DNA from: a virus
Reading direction: 5' to 3' (one strand)
Length of the DNA stretch: 32,713 bases
Virus record (IMG/VR): IMGVR_UViG_3300002026_000105
The notes beneath the pieces were generated by a model that was not told where the DNA came from, did no database searches, and saw nothing but the letters and a program-made list of their open reading frames with translations. Position 1 is the stretch's first letter, and each line of letters begins with the position of its first letter. Position numbers and translations under genes: made by a program. Below are positions 1-32,713 of this stretch, in pieces.

Positions 1-91
1 AGCACAAAAGAAAGAAACACCAGTAAAATAGTTTTTTGCACATTATTATTCCTTAAAATTAAGATAAGCTTCTTCACCCCATAACTCTAGG
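1..91. repeat. Terminal overlap identical to 32623..32713 (circular or circularly permuted genome, unique length 32622 bp)
   Basis: Read directly: the same 91 nt (agcacaaaagaaag...ccataactctagg) sit at both window ends. The repeat carries the 3' end of the HNH-AP2 gene and the 5' end of the 131-aa ORF, so reading frames continue across the junction. Confidence 0.95.
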
Positions 92-525
92 GCTTTTACA
101 TCATAAGCTCTAGCAGCATCTTCTGGGGTAGTAAAATAACCTAGAAATAATCTCTTTTCTGTTGAACTTATATAAGCTACATAATTGTTTCTATCTTTTC
201 TAACACCAACACCTTTATATCCAGTAGTATTTGAAGATCTTGGACGTTCTAATCTTCTGGCTAAACTCATATTTTGTTTAGCCTTGATAGAATATTTTTT
301 CCCAATTGTATGTAAATAATTGTGTTGACTATGGGTTAAACACTTAAGATTTTCGATAGTATTATTATTTTTATCTTCATCTAAATGATGAATGCAATAA
401 CCTTTAGGAACTTTACATCCAGTATATTTTTCATAAACATAAACATGTTGATATCCATAAGTTCCATTTTTCCAATAACCATTATTTTGAGTCCAAGTTA
501 TTCCATCTAAGTTTCTATTGTCCAT
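46..525 (-). CDS. HNH homing endonuclease with C-terminal AP2 DNA-binding domain (copy 1)
   Basis: 159-aa ORF. HNH motif HHLDEDKNNNTIENLKCLTHSQHNYLH, then an AP2-type segment GYKGVGVRK...YVAYI...LGYFTTPEDAARAYDVKALELWGEEAYLNF. Paralog of 31034..31468. Confidence 0.85.
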   Translation of the reverse strand: MDNRNLDGITWTQNNGYWKNGTYGYQHVYVYEKYTGCKVPKGYCIHHLDEDKNNNTIENLKCLTHSQHNYLHTIGKKYSIKAKQNMSLARRLERPRSSNTTGYKGVGVRKDRNNYVAYISSTEKRLFLGYFTTPEDAARAYDVKALELWGEEAYLNFKE

Positions 526-2993: not shown

Positions 2994-4328
2994 TTAAGAT
3001 AACCAATTTAATGTTACACTCTTGATCCTTATTTCATTTCCACCATCTGGAGCTGATCTATCACAAGCTAAACCTGTAAGTATAAAAGGCACTGCAGTAG
3101 ATATATAACCTGTCATAGATACGGTATCTACAACTGAAGATGTCTGTGTAACGGTCATATCAAGCTTTAAGTCATCTTCACCCATTATTTCCACTGACAT
3201 AATACCACTAGTCTCATATAAACCTGTAGCAGTAATAGGGGTAACACTTAGTGTTATTTCTTGAACACCATCTTCTAAAAGAGCTACAAGAGTTTCAGGA
3301 ACAACATAGGTTTGAACATCATAAACTATTTTATATTGTGCTATCCTACCAGTTGCCCATTGGATATTGTCTAGATTACCTCTCTTATTTTTTGTTAGTG
3401 ACAGTATTGCTTCACCTTCTTGGAGGTCTACATTCATTACAGAGTAAATAAAGGTATCAGCAGAAAGTTTATTATCTGTATTAAGATATAAAGCATCACC
3501 AATTTTTAATCCACCAAGGGTTGTTTCTGTTGCAACCTCAAGAGATATATTACCAGCAACATCAACTAGGATACCTGGTGCTGTAGAATTGGCAGCTCTA
3601 CCAGGAACAGGGATAGAGTACTCATCAAAACCTGTCATACTTTCCCAAAGACCTGTACCAATTGGTGTAGAGAAATAAGCATTAGAACCTGGTCCTACCA
3701 TTTCTGATACTATCTCTATACCAGTAAGACCGATAGTAAAGGTAATAGGTGACTCATTAAATAAGCCAATAAGATCTCCTAAAGTAGAAGTAGCAGCAGT
3801 AAGTCCATTTTCTGGTAAGGTAAAGCTAGGAGCTGCTGGAGGTTGTTCATCAATGTGCATCACAAATGAGTAACTTGTAATATCATCTAGACCTAAATCT
3901 GCAAGGGTATCTGTCAATGCAGGGACTGTGGTAAATAGTATCTCTGAAGAACCCTGTGTAGCAGGAGTATAAACTCCATCTTTGATCATTACAGAACCTA
4001 GGGTATCAGCGGTAGCAGGGTCGCCACTGCCACCTCCTCCTGACTCTGAAAAGTATTTGGCGTATTGTGTTTCATTCCAAACTTGGATATCATCGTACTC
4101 AAAACCTGGTAGATCTGAAGTTGATAAGAACACGATATATTGATCAGCATAGGCATTAAGATAAATACCAGCGGGTGTTTTTACCGCCAAGATAACTGAC
4201 CTGATATCGGTTTGATCCTGGATACTGATAATTTCTGGGTACAGTGCTACCAATGCTTCTGCATCTAGGATAGCTCCTGAAAATAATATAGGGTCTGAAT
4301 ATGCAGCCGTTTTAAACTTGTTTGACAT
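2994..4328 (-). CDS. Tail fibre / receptor-binding protein 2 (444 aa)
   Basis: The first ~100 aa align with fibre 1 (MS.KFKTAAY...YIVFLS.S..P.FEY.DIQVWN.TQYAKYFSESGGGG). One LGG.KIG repeat is present (TETTLGGLKIGD) and the C-terminus is unrelated. SD AAAAAGGAGATACAAA precedes the ATG. Confidence 0.8.
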   Translation of the reverse strand: MSNKFKTAAYSDPILFSGAILDAEALVALYPEIISIQDQTDIRSVILAVKTPAGIYLNAYADQYIVFLSTSDLPGFEYDDIQVWNETQYAKYFSESGGGGSGDPATADTLGSVMIKDGVYTPATQGSSEILFTTVPALTDTLADLGLDDITSYSFVMHIDEQPPAAPSFTLPENGLTAATSTLGDLIGLFNESPITFTIGLTGIEIVSEMVGPGSNAYFSTPIGTGLWESMTGFDEYSIPVPGRAANSTAPGILVDVAGNISLEVATETTLGGLKIGDALYLNTDNKLSADTFIYSVMNVDLQEGEAILSLTKNKRGNLDNIQWATGRIAQYKIVYDVQTYVVPETLVALLEDGVQEITLSVTPITATGLYETSGIMSVEIMGEDDLKLDMTVTQTSSVVDTVSMTGYISTAVPFILTGLACDRSAPDGGNEIRIKSVTLNWLS

Positions 4329-4443
4329 TTTGTATCTCCTTTTTCTGACTTAAAATATGCTTTAGCATCTCTTCTCTCTCTTTCTCAGGTACATCAGGGT
4401 GTAATATCCTAATGGCCTCTCTTAACCTTTCCTCATTACTCAT
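4312..4443 (-). CDS. Hypothetical 43-aa protein (below the ORF-track cutoff)
   Basis: Hand translation gives MSNEERLREAIRILHPDVPEKEREEMLKHILSQKKEIQNVKQV. Its ATG overlaps the upstream stop (ATGA) and its end overlaps the fibre start by 17 nt. Confidence 0.4.
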   Translation of the reverse strand: MSNEERLREAIRILHPDVPEKEREEMLKHILSQKKEIQNVKQV

Positions 4444-4610
4444 TTTACCAATATTTTTTCTATCAACCTTGAAGATATTACGAATACGCCTATATAAAAA
4501 AAGTATTGACTCTCTAAACTTTTATTATAGACTAGGATACAAGAGGTAATAAAAAATAACCCCTTCATGGATATTAGCTTAATAGCCAGATCTTTGAACC
4601 TCTTGAACAT
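4440..4610 (-). CDS. Small membrane protein, holin-like candidate (56 aa)
   Basis: The internal ATG at 4610 has AGGAGGTTAAGT upstream. The track ORF's 5' extension overlaps the previous gene. Two short hydrophobic stretches are present (GLFFITSCILVY, YFFYIGVFVISS). It sits directly after the putative lysin. Confidence 0.45.
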   Translation of the reverse strand: MFKRFKDLAIKLISMKGLFFITSCILVYNKSLESQYFFYIGVFVISSRLIEKILVK

Positions 4611-4612
4611 AC

Positions 4613-5074
4613 TTAACCTCCTATATAATACCAAATGGTATAAAATGGTTTAATACAGTGTATCTCAGGTTGGTGTGGATCCCAAAGTAATTTACCTTCT
4701 TTATCTACTAACCTGAAATGTGTTTTACTAGGTCCATTTTGTTCTATCTTTTGGATCCTAGCTTTAACATCTTGAAACTTTTTATTAGTCATAACCCAAG
4801 GGTAGAATCCACTTGCAGAGGTTCCTACTTCTATCACCTGTTTCTCTACACCTAACTTTCTATAGGCTAGAGAGATAATATTAGCGGACATCTTGATATT
4901 ATCTTCTTTATTTATATACCCAAATTGCTTACAAATATCCCAAATCCTACTGTGGTCTTCAAGAGAAAAATATTTACCTACATCCATTTCAGCAATAGCT
5001 AAACAGCTTTTGAAAAAACAACCTATCCTGGAGATTTCATCTCTCATACCAGGAGAGTTTTGATGCAATATCAT
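4613..5074 (-). CDS. Putative cell-wall hydrolase (papain-like Cys/His signature), 153 aa
   Basis: Its ATG overlaps the upstream stop (ATGA). Candidate catalytic residues are C19 (RIGCFF), H119 (KTHFRLVD) and D132 (WDP). It is flanked by two membrane proteins. The function is inferred from position and residue pattern only. Confidence 0.4.
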   Translation of the reverse strand: MILHQNSPGMRDEISRIGCFFKSCLAIAEMDVGKYFSLEDHSRIWDICKQFGYINKEDNIKMSANIISLAYRKLGVEKQVIEVGTSASGFYPWVMTNKKFQDVKARIQKIEQNGPSKTHFRLVDKEGKLLWDPHQPEIHCIKPFYTIWYYIGG

Positions 5075-5610
5075 GTCATTACCCCCTTAAGAAACCACTC
5101 TTTTAACAGAAATAATATAAAGGCTACTATACCTGATGCTAGAGAGGTATATACTACCACCCTGAATATCTTCATAAACCCATCTATAATTGCTGCCTTA
5201 CCTCTTAAAGAAGCTTTATCTTGATCATCTTTTAACTTGTATAACTCTTTTTTAATATTTAATAGTTCTTCCTTATATGCAACTAGTGTTGTCTTCATAA
5301 GGTTTATATCTTCTAGATACCTATCATATTCTCTGATATTATTCTCGTGTTTATTTACCTTTTCTATAAGTTCAAGATGCTCCTCTTCATTTTGTATCAA
5401 GGTATTTTGTACAATTTGTAACTTGTCTCCTATCTTGGTATCCAAATTACTTATTTTATCTTTCACACTTTCCAGAGATATTTCTACATTTTCTTTCAGT
5501 GACTCAACTGATGCAATAAGTTTGAACACGCTCTGTTGTATTTCCATTGAGTCTCTCCTTCTGTCGAGTACAAAATTACCAGCAGTATCCCTGACATACA
5601 TATCGTTCAA
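5071..5610 (-). CDS. Coiled-coil protein with C-terminal TM anchor (179 aa), lysis-cassette member
   Basis: TTG start with GGAGGAGGCACC upstream. A long heptad-rich region is followed by the hydrophobic tail VVVYTSLASGIVAFILFLL. Confidence 0.6.
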   Translation of the reverse strand: MNDMYVRDTAGNFVLDRRRDSMEIQQSVFKLIASVESLKENVEISLESVKDKISNLDTKIGDKLQIVQNTLIQNEEEHLELIEKVNKHENNIREYDRYLEDINLMKTTLVAYKEELLNIKKELYKLKDDQDKASLRGKAAIIDGFMKIFRVVVYTSLASGIVAFILFLLKEWFLKGVMT

Positions 5611-10298: not shown

Positions 10299-13200
10299 TT
10301 ATCTTGATCTTGCTTTTGATATTACTGAAACTTCTGCTTCTTTAAACTCAGGGAGTATACTTACTATCAGTATCTTTTCTTGACACTCTATTTTAAGAGA
10401 TGTACCTAAAGATCTTTGATACTCAGGTTGTATCCTAACTCTAGTATATCCACCCTCATCCCAATCTCCAGGGTTTATCACCCACTTTCTAGTTTGCTCT
10501 CTAGTATCATCGGTATCCACTACGTAAGATGTTCCTATTACGGTTACAGCTTGTTTAGCTTCTGAATATATAGTTATGACCCAATTACTGAGTATACTCT
10601 TTTGGTTGAGGTTAAACCCAAAGTAAGGTGTCTGTAAAGAGAGAGGTACAACTGCGTCTCCTGTATCATAGGTATAAGACCATTGAGAGGTGTTATTGCT
10701 TATCACTATACCACTAGTTGTATCATAGAACTTGAGATCAGTTTGATCAGGTAGTTTAATATTCTCTGTAACGATATTATCTCTCACCCATATTATGGAA
10801 GTAGGTGTATCTAATACTAGAGTATTATCTCTAGGAGAATAGGTACCTGACAAGATATCAGGTTTTCTATTAAGGCGTTGAAACTTTTCTAGGGCTCTAC
10901 CACCTGTAAATGTATAGAGAGAGTTATCAAAACTAGAGAGAAAGTAAATTATTGTAGGGGTAGATGCGATATATCTCAGCCCATTAGCAGAAGCTACCTT
11001 AGTTTTGTTATTAAATACCCCTGTTACCCTATCTAACTCTACAGTATAGATATTAAGACCATCAAAGAGGTATTTTTGTCCATAAAGATCGAAATTACTA
11101 AAGCTTCCTGCTATATCATTACCAATAGGGTAAAGATCAGAGTCTGGTTTTAAGAATATCGTCAAATTGTCTGTCAAAATGACACCATTATCGTAAGTTA
11201 CCCCTATTTTTGGTGATAGATAAGTAGATTCCAAGTAAAGGATGTCAGTTTTATCACTATCTACCAATTCTTGCCCATTATTTAGCGTAGAGAACCCATA
11301 AACATCATCAATATAGGTATCAATAGCATAAGAACCTATTGGGGTAGAGACGAGAGGTATTCTATAACCTAATATTTCTATATTTGTTGATGAAAGAGGT
11401 TTAATAGTCACCAATTTATCACCAGTATCTATAGAGTTAGAGTAAGAGTTGTTCATTATTGATACAACTTTACTAGCTGTTCCTGGTGCTATCAAAGAAG
11501 AGAATAACATTCTGTTATTATAGTCTACAGATGAAGCAAATGGTGAGAGAGATACAGCATTAGTATCTATCAAGTTAAGGGGTGATATGGTATTGATCTT
11601 GTAAAGGGTATCAGTAACCTTATTTACCCTGTTTGGTGGAGCTTTTATTACTTTGAATAAGGCAAACTCCTTTTTCTCATTTTGATACAATACTAATTCA
11701 TCATTCAATATCTGAGGTTGATAGAGTGGGTTGATGGAACCGATATTAGTAGCTAACACACCAAGGGTATCAGATGGGTTTGTATCTAGGATAGCCACAG
11801 AAAAGAAGCTAGGCACTTCATTGATAAGCCCTACTCTTATTTCAAATGGCCTAGTTGGTGTCTGGTTGTAATTGTTAGTCAATTTACCATAGGCATTTAT
11901 CAAGGTATTAGTATTACTTTGTGTTACTTGGAAGAGGGAAGTAGTATCTCTCTTAAATTGTGGTGTGTAAGTATAAACATCAGTTGCAGAGGCAGTAAGT
12001 TTAAGAGTAATATCTTCATAACCCCATGTTGCATTACTGTTCAAGATAGAGGATACAACATAAGGAGCGTCTGGGTATACCACAGTAGATGAGAAATTGA
12101 TAAAGTCTGTATATCCTATCAATCCAGTAGCCTGTATCTTGGTTGCTGTAAATAAAGGTCTAGCCGCAGAGTTTTTAGCAGTTATAATATGTCTAGTTTT
12201 ACCGTTCAGTAATTGAGGTAAAGCGTAAGAACCTGTAAATATGGTAACAGAATAAGCTGTCTTGTCAAAGATATAAGAGATATTATTAAGGTTTCCAACA
12301 AGGTTTATCAGATAAAGACCATTCTCATACTTGTAAGTATAGAGATACCCAAATGTAGAGAACCCACCCATCATGGAATTAAGTACACCCCCACCAGAGA
12401 CACCAAGAAATGGTGTAAAGGATCCTGTAAAAGACATACTGTTTATAGCACCAGTTGATCCACCAACTAGAACCTGGTTATTATATTCGATAAAAGCTTT
12501 AATGTCTCCTGAACCTACTATATTACCGTAATTAGTAATATGACCAGGCATATCAAAAGGGTATATCTCACCAGATAATATATTACCAGACCCTATCCTT
12601 CCTCCACCTCCTGAGAATACCAAGTTACCATCAATAGTATCAAGGTGATAGATATTTTCACTACCTAGAAAAGCACCATTTTGAGAGAATCCGGTGGCAG
12701 AGGAGTAAGGCACCCATGCCGCACCAGTAAAAAAACCGGTCCTTCCCCCATCTCCGGCTACTACTATCCTTCCATCATCAAGAGATACAGAACACCTAAT
12801 TGCGTTTGAGCCTAGGACTGTTGCATTATCACAAGGGAGGTTTCTTGTAACACCTTGTGTGTAAGCGTATTTCTCCACTCCCATAAACTTCATTGTGATG
12901 AATTGGTATCTTAATTCTGGAGTACTTTGGTTTACACCTATACTCACCCAGTTATCACCTGCAGCAAATATTCTCAAAGCTCCAGTAGTAGAGGATGGAT
13001 AAGCGTACACATTCCAATGGATACCATCTGAAGACATAATAACAGAGTTATTACCATTAGAGTAAACCCAAGTATCTTTAATATAATAGTGAGAGCTGTA
13101 AGGCCAAGAGGCACCTTCTTTTGCTGGAGCATATACAGTACCATTCACTGTACCTATATTCCAAGTAACACCATCATAAGAGTAGGCAGGAACACGCCCT

Positions 13201-31025: not shown

Positions 31026-31038
31026 ATATATAGTTATG
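31026..31038 (-). promoter_or_regulatory. Conserved motif CATAACTATATAT (copy 5), overlapping the HNH-AP2 stop codon
   Basis: Exact 13-mer, followed by ATC and then the ATG at 31022. Confidence 0.35.
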
Positions 31039-31468
31039 GAAAATTAAGAAAAGCTTCATCACCCCATAGTTCTCTTGCTTTTGCATCATAGGCTCTAGCA
31101 GCATCTTCTGGAGTAATATAACAACCTAAATATTCTTTTTTCAAACCATCTCTAATAGTAGCATACCATTTTTTTCCATTAAAACAAACTCCTTTATAGC
31201 CACTGGCATTTGAACATCTTAATGCTTCTTCCCTTTTCTTTTTACCATAATGGTGTAAATACTGATGATCACTTCTAGTCATACAAACAAGGTTTTCTGC
31301 TGTATTATTACTTGGATCTCCATCTAGATGATGTATTACCTGATGTTTGAATACTTTACATCCAGTAAGCTTTTCATAGACATAGACATGTTGTGATCCA
31401 TACTTTCCATTACTCCAATAACCATAATTTTTATACCACAATATCCCGTCATAATTTCTATTATCCAT
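31034..31468 (-). CDS. HNH homing endonuclease with AP2 domain (copy 2)
   Basis: 144-aa ORF with HHLDGDPSNNTAENLVCMTRSDHQYLH and GYKGVCFNGKKWYATI...LGCYITPEDAARAYDAKARELWGDEAFLNF. The ATG overlaps the upstream stop (TAATG). Confidence 0.85.
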   Translation of the reverse strand: MDNRNYDGILWYKNYGYWSNGKYGSQHVYVYEKLTGCKVFKHQVIHHLDGDPSNNTAENLVCMTRSDHQYLHHYGKKKREEALRCSNASGYKGVCFNGKKWYATIRDGLKKEYLGCYITPEDAARAYDAKARELWGDEAFLNFP

Positions 31469-31881
31469 TACTTACCACACCAATTTACTACACGATATTT
31501 AGGCATCACATTATAGAGTGAGCACATATTATTCGTGGGGTCATATACCCCAAATCCACCAGCATCCACAAGAACATGTAAAGAGTTTTGCTTGATCAAT
31601 AATACAGGGAGGAGTTGGGTATTCTCATATCCTGCCTCTTTGGCTAGAGATATAAAGAGGACTGACATATCGATACAGACACCTGACCCTTTTGCTAAAG
31701 TCTCTTCAGGTGTTTGAACCTCATCTATAGTTCTCACCACTCCGTCTTCATACTCTATGTTTTGGTATATCCACCTGTTGATATCAGGGAGAGAATAGAA
31801 GCGAGCAGGTCTATCTACCTGGTGAGGTACAGAGGTGCAAGAGATAAATAGTACCGATAAAAGAACTAAAAAATATTTCAT
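31468..31881 (-). CDS. Secreted lipoprotein with transglutaminase-like cysteine-protease core (137 aa)
   Basis: Signal plus lipobox-like MKYFLVLLSVLFIS|C. A Cys-His-Asp pattern is present: GSGVCIDMSVLFISLAKEAG (C69), LHVLV (H102), VYDPT (D114). Confidence 0.65.
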   Translation of the reverse strand: MKYFLVLLSVLFISCTSVPHQVDRPARFYSLPDINRWIYQNIEYEDGVVRTIDEVQTPEETLAKGSGVCIDMSVLFISLAKEAGYENTQLLPVLLIKQNSLHVLVDAGGFGVYDPTNNMCSLYNVMPKYRVVNWCGK

Positions 31882-32006
31882 ATTACTCCATAATGAATAA
31901 GAAGACCAAGGGTTGTAATACCAATACTAACTACAACCTTCCAAGTTTCTACTACTAAAATTGTAACAACCTCACGAGCTTCATCACTAAGTACTACATC
32001 TTCCAT
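31878..32006 (-). CDS. Small TM protein (42 aa, below the ORF-track cutoff), coupled to the lipoprotein gene
   Basis: GAGGAGAACAAG precedes the ATG. Translation gives MEDVVLSDEAREVVTILVVETWKVVVSIGITTLGLLIHYGVI. The stop overlaps the lipoprotein ATG (ATGA). Confidence 0.45.
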   Translation of the reverse strand: MEDVVLSDEAREVVTILVVETWKVVVSIGITTLGLLIHYGVI

Positions 32007-32028: not shown

Positions 32029-32056
32029 ATTATATCACATCTTAACCGTGTCTAAA
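32029..32056 (-). promoter_or_regulatory. Sigma70-like promoter P2 (TTTAGA-16 nt-TGaTATAAT)
   Basis: Minus strand reads GTTTAGACA CGGTTAAGATGTGA TATAAT with an extended -10 TG. It lies upstream of the 42-aa ORF SD. Confidence 0.55.
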
Positions 32057-32168
32057 CTATGCTTTAAAACAATAAGAGGTTTACTCCATTGCTAGAAAGG
32101 ATAATAACACCGATAAGAGCCACAACCATCAATAACCCTAATAACACTATGTCTTTGTTCATACTAAT

Positions 32169-32196
32169 ATTGTATACTATTATTATCTTGTCTAAA
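32169..32196 (-). promoter_or_regulatory. Sigma70-like promoter P1 (TTTAGA-16 nt-TACAAT)
   Basis: Minus strand reads GTTTAGACA AGATAATAATAGTA TACAAT. It has the same 9-mer and the same spacing as P2, and it directly follows the late-operon terminator. Confidence 0.45.
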
Positions 32197-32225
32197 CAAA
32201 AAAAGGCTGGACTGACAGTCCAACC
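32197..32225 (-). terminator. Intrinsic terminator ending the late operon
   Basis: Minus strand reads GGTTGGACT-GTC-AGTCCAGCC followed by TTTTTTTG. Confidence 0.8.
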
Positions 32226-32269
32226 TTTTAGGGAGTTAAAAAAACATGAATATAATAGTTTGTTATACA

Positions 32270-32665
32270 CTATAAACTATGCCACACAAGTAGCGCCGTT
32301 TCACCTAAAATAGCTACTAATAAAACTTTATTTAAAAGTTTTGATAGTTTGAAGGATCTTTCTAAGCTTTGAAACTGCATCAGTTGATCTTTCGATATCT
32401 TTTCTAGCTGTGTCAATTGCAATTGATCTTCTTTTATCACTCTCTTCATATCCTCTGATAATTTGCTCAAGTTCTCCAATCTGACCAAGTCTATAAGTCT
32501 GACTTTTTCTAAGTCTGTCAATTGAATCTGAAGACTCCTGTTCGAGTCTTCTATAGTCTTCAATTGATACAAACCTTGATCTGCTAATTCCGATAAAGAC
32601 TCCTGAGGAAATAACCACACCGAGCACAAAAGAAAGAAACACCAGTAAAATAGTTTTTTGCACAT
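32270..32665 (-). CDS. Envelope protein: signal/lipobox-like N-terminus, Leu-heptad coiled coil, hydrophobic C-terminus (131 aa)
   Basis: The ATG lies 2 nt after the HNH-AP2 stop in the closed circle, with AAGGAATAATA upstream. The N-terminus is MCKKLFYWCFFLLC|S and the C-terminus is LLNKVLLVAILGETALLVW. Confidence 0.55.
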   Translation of the reverse strand: MCKKLFYWCFFLLCSVWLFPQESLSELADQGLYQLKTIEDSNRSLQIQLTDLEKVRLIDLVRLENLSKLSEDMKRVIKEDQLQLTQLEKISKDQLMQFQSLERSFKLSKLLNKVLLVAILGETALLVWHSL

Positions 32666-32699
32666 TATTATTCCTTAAAATTAAGATAAGCTTCTTCAC
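32328..32699 (-). CDS. Alternative-frame ORF: N-terminal TM plus charged helical domain (123 aa, GTG start), i-spanin-like architecture
   Basis: It overlaps 32270..32665 on the same strand in a different frame for 338 nt. The TM segment is TILLVFLSFVLGVVISSGVFIGI. Only GTG starts are available (32699, inside the HNH gene, or 32663). Confidence 0.3.
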   Translation of the reverse strand: MKKLILILRNNNVQKTILLVFLSFVLGVVISSGVFIGISRSRFVSIEDYRRLEQESSDSIDRLRKSQTYRLGQIGELEQIIRGYEESDKRRSIAIDTARKDIERSTDAVSKLRKILQTIKTFK

Positions 32700-32713
32700 C
32701 CCATAACTCTAGG
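32623..32713. repeat. Second copy of the 91-nt terminal overlap (identical to 1..91)
   Basis: Exact identity to bases 1-91 by direct comparison. Confidence 0.95.

Follow-up and report, generated by a model that had tools for sequence, protein, structure and literature searches.

Can one stretch of about 336 nucleotides (nt) encode two membrane proteins at the same time, and could two proteins encoded in this way stand in for the spanins that phages use at lysis? The question is raised by positions 32,270 to 32,699 of the virus record IMGVR_UViG_3300002026_000105, a stretch of 32,713 nt (hereafter the window), where two long open reading frames (ORFs), here called frames A and B, overlap almost completely on one strand and had been predicted from the letters alone to encode a spanin-like pair. 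Dual coding of the stretch is well supported by the analysis presented here, while the role of the two products has to be argued from their predicted layout, from their genomic surroundings and from a set of comparable pairs in other phages.

Two open frames over one stretch of DNA

All genes of the window, frames A and B included, lie on the minus strand. Frame A (32270..32665, minus strand), referred to below as Long-like, starts with ATG and encodes 131 amino acids (aa), and frame B (32328..32663, minus strand), the short partner and the one that resembles an inner-membrane spanin (i-spanin), starts with GTG and encodes 111 aa. Frame B is open as far as a GTG at 32699, which with its stop at 32328 would give a maximum of 123 aa; since this codon falls within the upstream HNH gene, the realistic start is the GTG at 32663, which is also the start annotated in the NCBI whole-genome shotgun record JFJP01 and by JGI. 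Gene callers disagree at this locus, as ENA and Logan (other assemblies of the same phage) pick A as the gene and NCBI and JGI pick B. The frame offset of 1 nt and the 338 shared nt given in the original prediction are borne out by the ORF coordinates (32270..32665 and 32328..32699), A being the +1 frame of B; counted from the likely start of B, the bases common to both amount to 336 nt, and frame A runs 58 nt beyond the frame B stop. The overlap had also been described as the only extensive one on the same strand, and it is indeed the only one in the window with two open stretches of at least 90 codons. The longest other off-frame open stretch nested in a gene has 73 codons, and the third frame contains 15 stops over the shared stretch.

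The start codons of the two frames themselves overlap in the motif ATGTG (32661..32665, minus strand), in which the ATG opens frame A and the GTG, 2 nt away, opens frame B. A single Shine-Dalgarno (SD)-like AAGGA, read from the sequence (32672..32676, minus strand), is located upstream, at 6 nt from the ATG and 8 nt from the GTG, and the TAA stop of the HNH gene (32670..32668) sits between this site and the two start codons. The ATG of frame A is the stronger start and is optimally spaced after the SD, and the layout shows one mRNA region and one ribosome-binding site for both frames. Ribosomes would load at the single SD, or re-initiate after the HNH stop, and initiation would take place either at the ATG at 32665, leading into frame A, or at the GTG at 32663, leading into frame B, so that the same ~336 nt would be read twice and yield two alpha-helical, membrane-anchored proteins.

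A double open frame could have a trivial origin. Coiled-coil genes, with their 21-nt periodicity and biased composition, might leave a second frame open by chance in AT-rich DNA, and an error of assembly at the junction would be another source, as the N-terminal part of the pair is inside a 91-nt terminal repeat. Window bases 1..91 are identical to 32623..32713, from which it follows that the genome is circular or terminally redundant and measures 32,622 bp; in the JGI contig KEY_1000733 (51.7 kb), this genome is present as a 1.58x concatemer. Source samples of the phage are SRR931706, SRR931294, ERZ2286749 and JGI 3300000939. The junction is contiguous and identical across five independent assemblies, with 0 single-nucleotide polymorphisms inside the pair, and an assembly artefact was rejected on these grounds. 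As to chance, when synonymous codons were resampled from the codon usage of the genome in either frame, the other frame was open in 0 of 5000 replicates, and codon permutation left the second frame open in 4 and 0 of 5000 replicates, respectively (p<=0.006 when the actual codons are permuted). Exact dynamic programming gave a probability of 5.6e-8 that A is stop-free given the B protein and the codon usage of the genome, and of 3.5e-7 that B is stop-free given the A protein.

An internal control within frame B bears on the same point. The sole B codons able to create a stop in A are the A-ending codons of Leu, Ile and Val, and we compared these stop-risk codons with A-ending codons at harmless positions. 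A-ending forms account for 2 of the 31 Leu, Ile and Val codons of frame B, against 53.7% genome-wide (P=2.9e-8) and a minimum of 41% in 25 other genes. For Ile, ATA is used in 0 of 14 cases, compared with 54% genome-wide, and for Leu the codons CTT or CTC are used in 8 of 10 (28% genome-wide). At harmless positions, A-ending codons are not avoided (41 of 61, versus 46% genome-wide). The avoidance is thus limited to stop-risk codons and is not a foreign codon bias, an explanation that we considered and that the harmless positions rule out. This is direct evidence that frame A is now held open by selection, or was so until very recently. An accidental open off-frame of this length had been called unexpected from the outset, and with exact probabilities of the order of 1e-7 to 1e-8 and an avoidance so specific to stop-risk codons, chance is excluded; together with the five concordant assemblies, this effectively refutes an artefactual origin, to which we leave almost no probability at all.

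Other accounts of the locus were examined and set aside. An alternative genetic code was rejected, the large ORFs being all intact under table 11, as was programmed frameshifting at an A6 run just past the starts, where the heptamer is in the third frame and not in A or B. An explanation by a non-coding RNA or a tRNA was likewise considered and rejected.

The predicted products of frames A and B

By composition, B is the primary frame. Its base composition by codon position matches that of the genes of this phage, with a codon-model score at the low end of real-gene windows. Frame A looks overprinted, or else tightly co-constrained: its codon usage resembles that of a +1 off-frame, within the top 1.7% of such windows, and TCG serves for 4 of its 12 Ser codons, compared with 1% genome-wide.

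The product of frame B has the i-spanin (Rz-like) layout originally proposed for it, namely an N-terminal transmembrane (TM) helix and then one long predicted helix. The TM helix (residues 5-26, ILLVFLSFVLGVVISSGVFIGI, encoded at 32586..32651 on the minus strand) is supported by hydropathy and by AlphaFold2 (AF2). Its Kyte-Doolittle hydropathy over 19 residues (KD19) reaches 2.65 over residues 5-26, compared with 2.63 for lambda Rz, and AF2 places helices at residues 2-27 and 34-110, the second being a 77-residue charged helix that follows a short break, with a predicted local distance difference test score (pLDDT) of 89. No Cys is present in B. By the criteria of Kongari et al. 2018 (PMC6139136), an i-spanin is a type II inner-membrane protein that consists of an N-terminal TM domain (TMD) and a helical or coiled-coil periplasmic domain, and the predicted layout of B contains both, if the N-in topology that we assume is correct. 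One could nevertheless propose that A alone is a gene and that B is open by chance, given that A has the ATG start and the longer ORF and is the choice of some gene callers. Such a proposal has to accommodate a probability of 3.5e-7 for B being stop-free given A, a codon-position composition that matches real genes in B and not in A, and a TM helix that is far stronger in B, and we regard it as highly improbable.

Read in frame A, the DNA of the B TM helix (32586..32651) gives a weak hydrophobic N-terminus, LFYWCFFLLCSVWLF, of 15 residues with a KD19 of 1.49. The AF2 model of A is all-alpha, with helices at residues 2-18 and 21-130 (the latter of ~110 residues) and a pLDDT of 93.5. Downstream of the B stop, the A-only tail VLLVAILGETALLVW (32282..32326, minus strand) provides a hydrophobic C-terminus, for which residues 114-128 have a KD15 of 2.28 and a KD19 of 1.81, and among 885 six-frame ORF ends of the genome this tail ranks within the top 3.3% for hydrophobicity. 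The lipobox FFLLC, followed by S, that had been read in A as a sign of an outer-membrane spanin (o-spanin) does not withstand scrutiny. In the box F-L-L-C14 a Leu occupies position -1, outside the o-spanin consensus [LVI][ASTVI][GAS]C (PMC6139136), and the mean hydropathy of the h-region, 1.62, is under the threshold of the lipoprotein scan. With the FLLC box invalid and the h-region weak, neither the o-spanin nor the unimolecular spanin (u-spanin) reading of A can be maintained; the latter, which had also been suggested, is further at odds with a middle part that is all-alpha rather than beta, and the C-terminal anchor of A is marginal. An internal o-spanin start within A was rejected too, no lipobox being present after Met73 or Met96.

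How far the appearance of A is owed to B was assessed by sampling 4000 synonymous versions of B with frame A constrained to stay open. Among these open resamples, the N-terminal hydrophobicity of A is ordinary (p=0.25), as are its heptad periodicity (p=0.22) and its Leu content (p=0.43). The hydrophobic, Leu-rich look of A arises because NTT codons of B, together with a following purine, are read as TTA or TTG (Leu) in A. The protein-like features of frame A are therefore largely by-products of B, and the earlier impression of two genuine-looking envelope proteins is for the most part no independent evidence; the Leu-heptad coiled coil, in particular, loses its value as independent evidence, as it is unexceptional among stop-free +1 readings of B. 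What goes beyond a by-product in A is only its charge excess (0.33 charged residues versus 0.26±0.025 in stop-free resamples, p=0.0025), a core without Cys and Trp, and the hydrophobic A-only tail.

These results make it necessary to consider that only B is functional, A being a relic of a dual-coded locus or a frame kept open through constraint at the nucleotide level. The normal composition of B would agree with this, as would the off-frame character of A with its rare TCG codons, the dependence of its N-terminal hydrophobicity, heptads and Leu on B, its non-canonical lipobox and marginal C-terminal anchor, and the lack of homologues showing conservation of A. However, the avoidance of stop-risk codons (2 of 31, versus 54% otherwise) would then be left without a known explanation, and a relic would gain stops fast at 36% GC, with 3-7 of them expected even when the existing codons are permuted. 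In addition, it is the ATG of A that is the stronger and optimally placed start, and A shows a charge excess (p=0.0025) and a hydrophobic unique tail (p~0.03). We judge this account improbable, without dismissing it, and are fairly confident that both frames are expressed and functional; that both are translated is what we infer from the sequence.

Comparable pairs in relatives of the lysin

Direct searches with A and B led back to the phage itself. Only self matches were obtained for both in 5.8 billion indexed proteins, in IMG/VR and in INPHARED (tblastn), and for frame B in a full HMMER search over 1.84 billion representatives, and no relative of A or B was found in PDB. Close relatives of the phage were sought by DNA against phages, by the 137-aa, 748-aa and primase proteins against IMG/VR and by the capsid and terminase proteins against INPHARED, and distant relatives only were recovered in each case. 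A search of INPHARED with the window lysin and a Long protein (see below), and a scan of the alignments of the family described below against IMG/VR, gave no match.

An alignment of the window lysin, used as an anchor, gave access to ~25 metagenomic loci at 31-44% identity, and ten of these have a co-start pair like that of the window, made up of a short partner and a longer one (Long): L007 (986-1445), L024 (466-928), L025 (7064-7547), L029 (1024-1474), L035 (11239-11707), L036 (10678-10990), L022 (11874-12203), L013 (3024-3369), L015 (252-603) and L030 (662-1013). The short partner, of 80-123 aa, begins at its N-terminus with either a lipoprotein signal or a simple TM anchor, behind which comes a charged helix. 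In Long (102-159 aa), a signal at the N-terminus precedes a coiled coil with a YxITExxLxKLE motif, and a C-terminal TMD is encoded past the stop of the short partner. Long is the +1 frame of the short partner at all ten loci, and a single SD precedes start codons that are spaced by 4-16 nt, for example in the motifs ATGTATG in L024 and ATGAATG in L029 and L036, or as an ATG and a GTG 8 nt apart in L022. The phages that carry these pairs are uncultured and probably associated with spirochaetes or Bacteroidota. Gene callers annotate one frame only of each pair.

In this ten-locus family both frames are demonstrably under selection at the protein level. Both are stop-free, with 6-16 stops in the third frame, and off-frame protein conservation is above the null expectation each way (0 of 300 resamples, z 8-18). 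Among close relatives within the family, substitution in the dual-coded part is low and flat over the codon phases (0.17/0.09/0.15), whereas in the Long-only tail it reaches 0.44 at third positions.

The window pair shares with this family the +1 relation, the near-complete overlap of the short partner, the starts behind one SD, the hydrophobic C-terminus of the longer product in its unique tail, and the lysin family itself. The longer partner starts first in the window and in L022, whose phage is the most related to the window phage (terminase 31% identity). Like B, the short partners of L036, L022, L013 and L015 have a TM anchor and no canonical lipobox; those of L007, L024, L025, L029 and L035 are lipoproteins, unlike B. 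The layout of A is that of the family Long proteins, with both hydrophobic segments weaker than in most members and comparable to those of L036 and L022; the Long proteins have AxA-type cleavage sites and 20-30-residue TMDs with basic tails, all of which A lacks. Most pairs of the family directly adjoin the lysin or a holin-like gene; in the window, ~4 kb separate the pair from the lysin.

Sequence comparison speaks against too close an identification of the two. In hhalign, A against Long gave E=0.012 with a probability of 3.6% (crossed control 0.17) and B against the short partner gave E=0.0021 with a probability of 13%, aligned on a GDxxEFEKIL motif (crossed control 0.051), so that the straight matches are just 10-25x better than the crossed controls; pairwise and shuffle tests of the window pair against the family were mostly non-significant. 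As sequence homology is not established, we regard the family as strongly analogous, and possibly distantly homologous, to the window pair, with no proven assignment. It does bear on the claim that a near-total overlap is not the classical arrangement: the geometry is outside that described for spanins, but it is not unique, since it recurs in these ten metagenomic loci.

Other relatives of the lysin are accompanied by arrangements of a more familiar kind. In L010, L011, L012 (a contig binned as Treponema) and L016, classical overlapped pairs resembling i- and o-spanins adjoin the homologous lysin, one product having a TM segment and a charged helix and the other being a lipoprotein with LLISC, LLTSC or LLNSC. 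In L037, a 177-aa u-spanin-like ORF (10578-11111) with the lipobox LLFNGC and a C-terminal TMD comes after the lysin and holin-like genes; the middle of this protein is Gln/Ala-rich and probably helical.

Overlapping spanin genes such as Rz/Rz1 are textbook embedded genes in phages, and in the described cases known to us the second gene always starts about halfway into the first. Like lambda Rz/Rz1, the window pair comprises two putative envelope proteins in overlapping frames on one strand, the second gene being in +1; B would share with lambda Rz a type II topology in the inner membrane, with the TMD at the N-terminus and an extended helical domain behind it, and the window pair is late, as are the lysis-associated lambda genes. 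In lambda, however, Rz1 starts in the middle of Rz, whereas the window starts are 2 nt apart and the overlap covers ~100% of B. A, an all-helical product of 131 aa with a hydrophobic C-terminus and no canonical lipobox, also differs from Rz1, which is a short lipoprotein rich in Pro; the window pair has no periplasmic Cys for disulfide links and no sequence similarity to Rz/Rz1. The genes of two-component spanins are embedded, overlapped or adjacent, and those of the window are overlapped, with a co-start geometry outside the described range: Rz1 starts at ~0.4-0.5 of the Rz length, and the start range described for o-spanins is 0.4-0.5 L (PMC6139136).

The P2 LysB/LysC genes and the classical pairs of L010, L011, L012 and L016 come nearer in one respect, as their second ORF outruns the first in the way that A outruns B, and the four metagenomic pairs lie beside the same lysin family as the window's. 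Their overlap is partial, however, and takes up the last ~140-250 nt of the i-spanin gene, where that of the window is near-total, and their o-spanins have a canonical lipobox and a Pro-rich mature part, unlike A. T1 gp11 has hydrophobic segments at both ends, as A does, but it has a lipobox and a beta-rich periplasmic domain, where A has an invalid FLLC, a marginal C-terminus and one predicted helix. Two lysis-related membrane proteins with adjacent starts and one ribosome-binding region are known in lambda S107/S105; those share a reading frame, the difference between them being two residues, while the window starts are out of frame and lead to unrelated products.

The late unit and the role of the pair

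An intrinsic terminator had been reported at 32197-32225, and we find it at 32229..32201 on the minus strand (32201..32229), with a 13-bp stem, a T-run, a free energy of -21.8 kcal/mol and a z-score of -3.5; it begins 41 nt past the frame A stop. On the other side, across the closed junction, the gene of a 159-aa HNH_3/AP2 endonuclease (46..525, minus strand) has its stop 2 nt before the ATG of A. With the circular junction closed, the pair thus comes after the fibre genes and the HNH gene and ends the late transcription unit, which agrees with its earlier placing as the last of the late operon, with the fibre genes between it and the lysin cassette. The lysis cassette, part of the same late unit, consists of a 176-aa coiled coil with a C-terminal TM segment (5601..5071, minus strand), a 153-aa lysin-like protein with Cys-His-Asp, a putative endolysin (5074..4613, minus strand), and a 56-aa two-TM holin-like protein (4610..4440, minus strand); two fibre genes, a 60-aa ORF and the HNH gene follow in this order before the A/B pair.

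An envelope role for the pair is suggested by its position at the end of the late unit, by the missing spanin pair, and by the spanins, the u-spanin-like gene and the analogous pairs that relatives carry beside a homologous lysin. No spanin-like pair was found beside the window lysin and holin-like genes (4440..5601), and a lipobox scan of the genome revealed no other small lipoprotein as a spanin candidate. B would be a type II protein with an N-terminal TM helix and a long charged helix. A would be one long helix, preceded by a weak signal or anchor and ending in a hydrophobic anchor that the A-only tail encodes; most likely the helices of A and B would pair in the periplasm, and the two proteins would form a spanin-equivalent or spanin-like complex in the envelope at lysis. 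The interaction of A with B, their topology and their lysis function are what we infer from these layouts. Several observations count against such a role. There are ~4 kb between the lysin and the pair downstream of it, neither A nor B has a canonical lipobox and hence an evident outer-membrane anchor, and the hydrophobic stretch at the C-terminus of A has 15 residues, an internal Glu and no basic tail. Pfam and PHROGs gave no match to A or B at E<=1, bar one noise match, and no spanin family, and as there is no homologue beyond copies of ~100% identity, the locus itself offers no comparative test; to these must be added the off-frame codon usage of A and the debt of its features to B.

The same observations would suit two translated products with another late membrane function, not directed at the outer membrane; such a pair could regulate lysis timing or resemble an antiholin, could serve in superinfection exclusion, or could remodel membranes in a stoichiometry set by dual initiation. 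The evidence for dual coding applies here too. The pair is HNH-flanked, ~4 kb from the lysin and at an operon end, where accessory genes are typically found, no product has a canonical lipobox or a match to a spanin family, and the cassette already has a TM and coiled-coil protein of 176 aa. On the other hand, the analogous pairs occur in or beside lysis cassettes, where relatives have classical spanins or a u-spanin-like gene, and the phage would otherwise be without a spanin candidate. We consider this alternative unlikely, though deserving of attention. If both frames are functional, we lean slightly towards an envelope or lysis (spanin-like) role; for the statement as a whole, a dual-coded pair with such a role, our confidence stops a little short of an even balance. 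Of the spanin-like pair first proposed, the overlap, the dual coding and the i-spanin-like B are retained, and the lipoprotein or u-spanin reading of A is given up.

Some further features of these surroundings were recorded. After the terminator come two promoter-like GTTTAGACA-N16-TAnAAT sites (32169-32196 and 32029-32056, minus strand); GTTTAGACA occurs only twice in the genome, each time before an ORF for a tiny TM peptide (32 aa at 32162..32064 and 42 aa at 32006..31878). Just after the terminator, behind the two promoter-like sites, lies the gene of a 137-aa lipoprotein (MKYFLVLLSVLFISC followed by T, box FISC; 31468-31881, minus strand) with a transglutaminase-like/DUF553 domain, which is the sole canonical lipoprotein of the genome and looks early or moron-type. 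The HNH_3/AP2 gene at 46-525 (minus strand) has a paralogue at 31034-31468 (minus strand), 57% identical, and the two HNH genes flank a block formed by the A/B pair, the terminator, the two small TM ORFs and the lipoprotein gene, a block that may be a mobile or recombination-prone module. The two fibre-like genes (734-2980 and 2994-4328, minus strand) are paralogues with common N-termini (MSDKFKTAAY / MSNKFKTAAY), and the larger one has an internal repeat of ~200 nt with 78% identity (2081-2270 versus 2384-2582).

In the family of the 153-aa lysin, Cys19, His119 and Asp132 (GCFF..THF..DPH) are invariant, which suggests a cysteine peptidase, and the window protein gives only a weak signal to Pfam DUF261 (Borrelia); one relative, P0006, has a C-terminal crAss001_48/Sequestin domain. 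The gene upstream of the lysin always encodes a coiled coil of ~100-176 aa with one TM segment, C- or N-terminal depending on the locus (window 5071-5601, minus strand; L006 2081-2419; L010 4267-4596; L008 395-646; L011 7683-7982; L012 7688-8014), and looks like another conserved, unannotated component of the cassette.

A type I inner-membrane spanin subunit was hypothesised by Kongari et al. 2018 (PMC6139136), and none was identified. The family Long proteins would fit such a subunit by analogy, and A would fit it weakly. The window pair and the ten-locus family might together be an undescribed class of spanin with a type I inner-membrane subunit, a proposal that we make tentatively and hold rather doubtful. 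In such a class, the type I subunit may combine a signal that is cleaved off with a coiled coil in the periplasm and a TMD at the C-terminus, and its partner may be a small lipoprotein or a TM-anchored helix encoded in near-complete overlap; translation of both would begin behind one ribosome-binding site, at neighbouring start codons in different frames; the same DNA may then give both signals and both helices, with the stoichiometry governed by the choice of start codon.

Overlapping pairs of lysis genes are known, and what is new here is the total overlap combined with a shared start site. If the products are spanin equivalents, the spanin architecture would reach to the type I inner-membrane subunit left open in the main survey, and some "spanin-less" phages would be accounted for. 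If the pair is what we propose, it would be a natural example of interacting helical membrane proteins that are co-encoded base for base and co-initiated. Since gene callers annotate one frame, and pipelines differ in the one they choose, such pairs are systematically missed, and the interest of the locus lies in the conservation of its design in a set of uncultured phages, where dual coding is demonstrable, and in its systematic mis-annotation.

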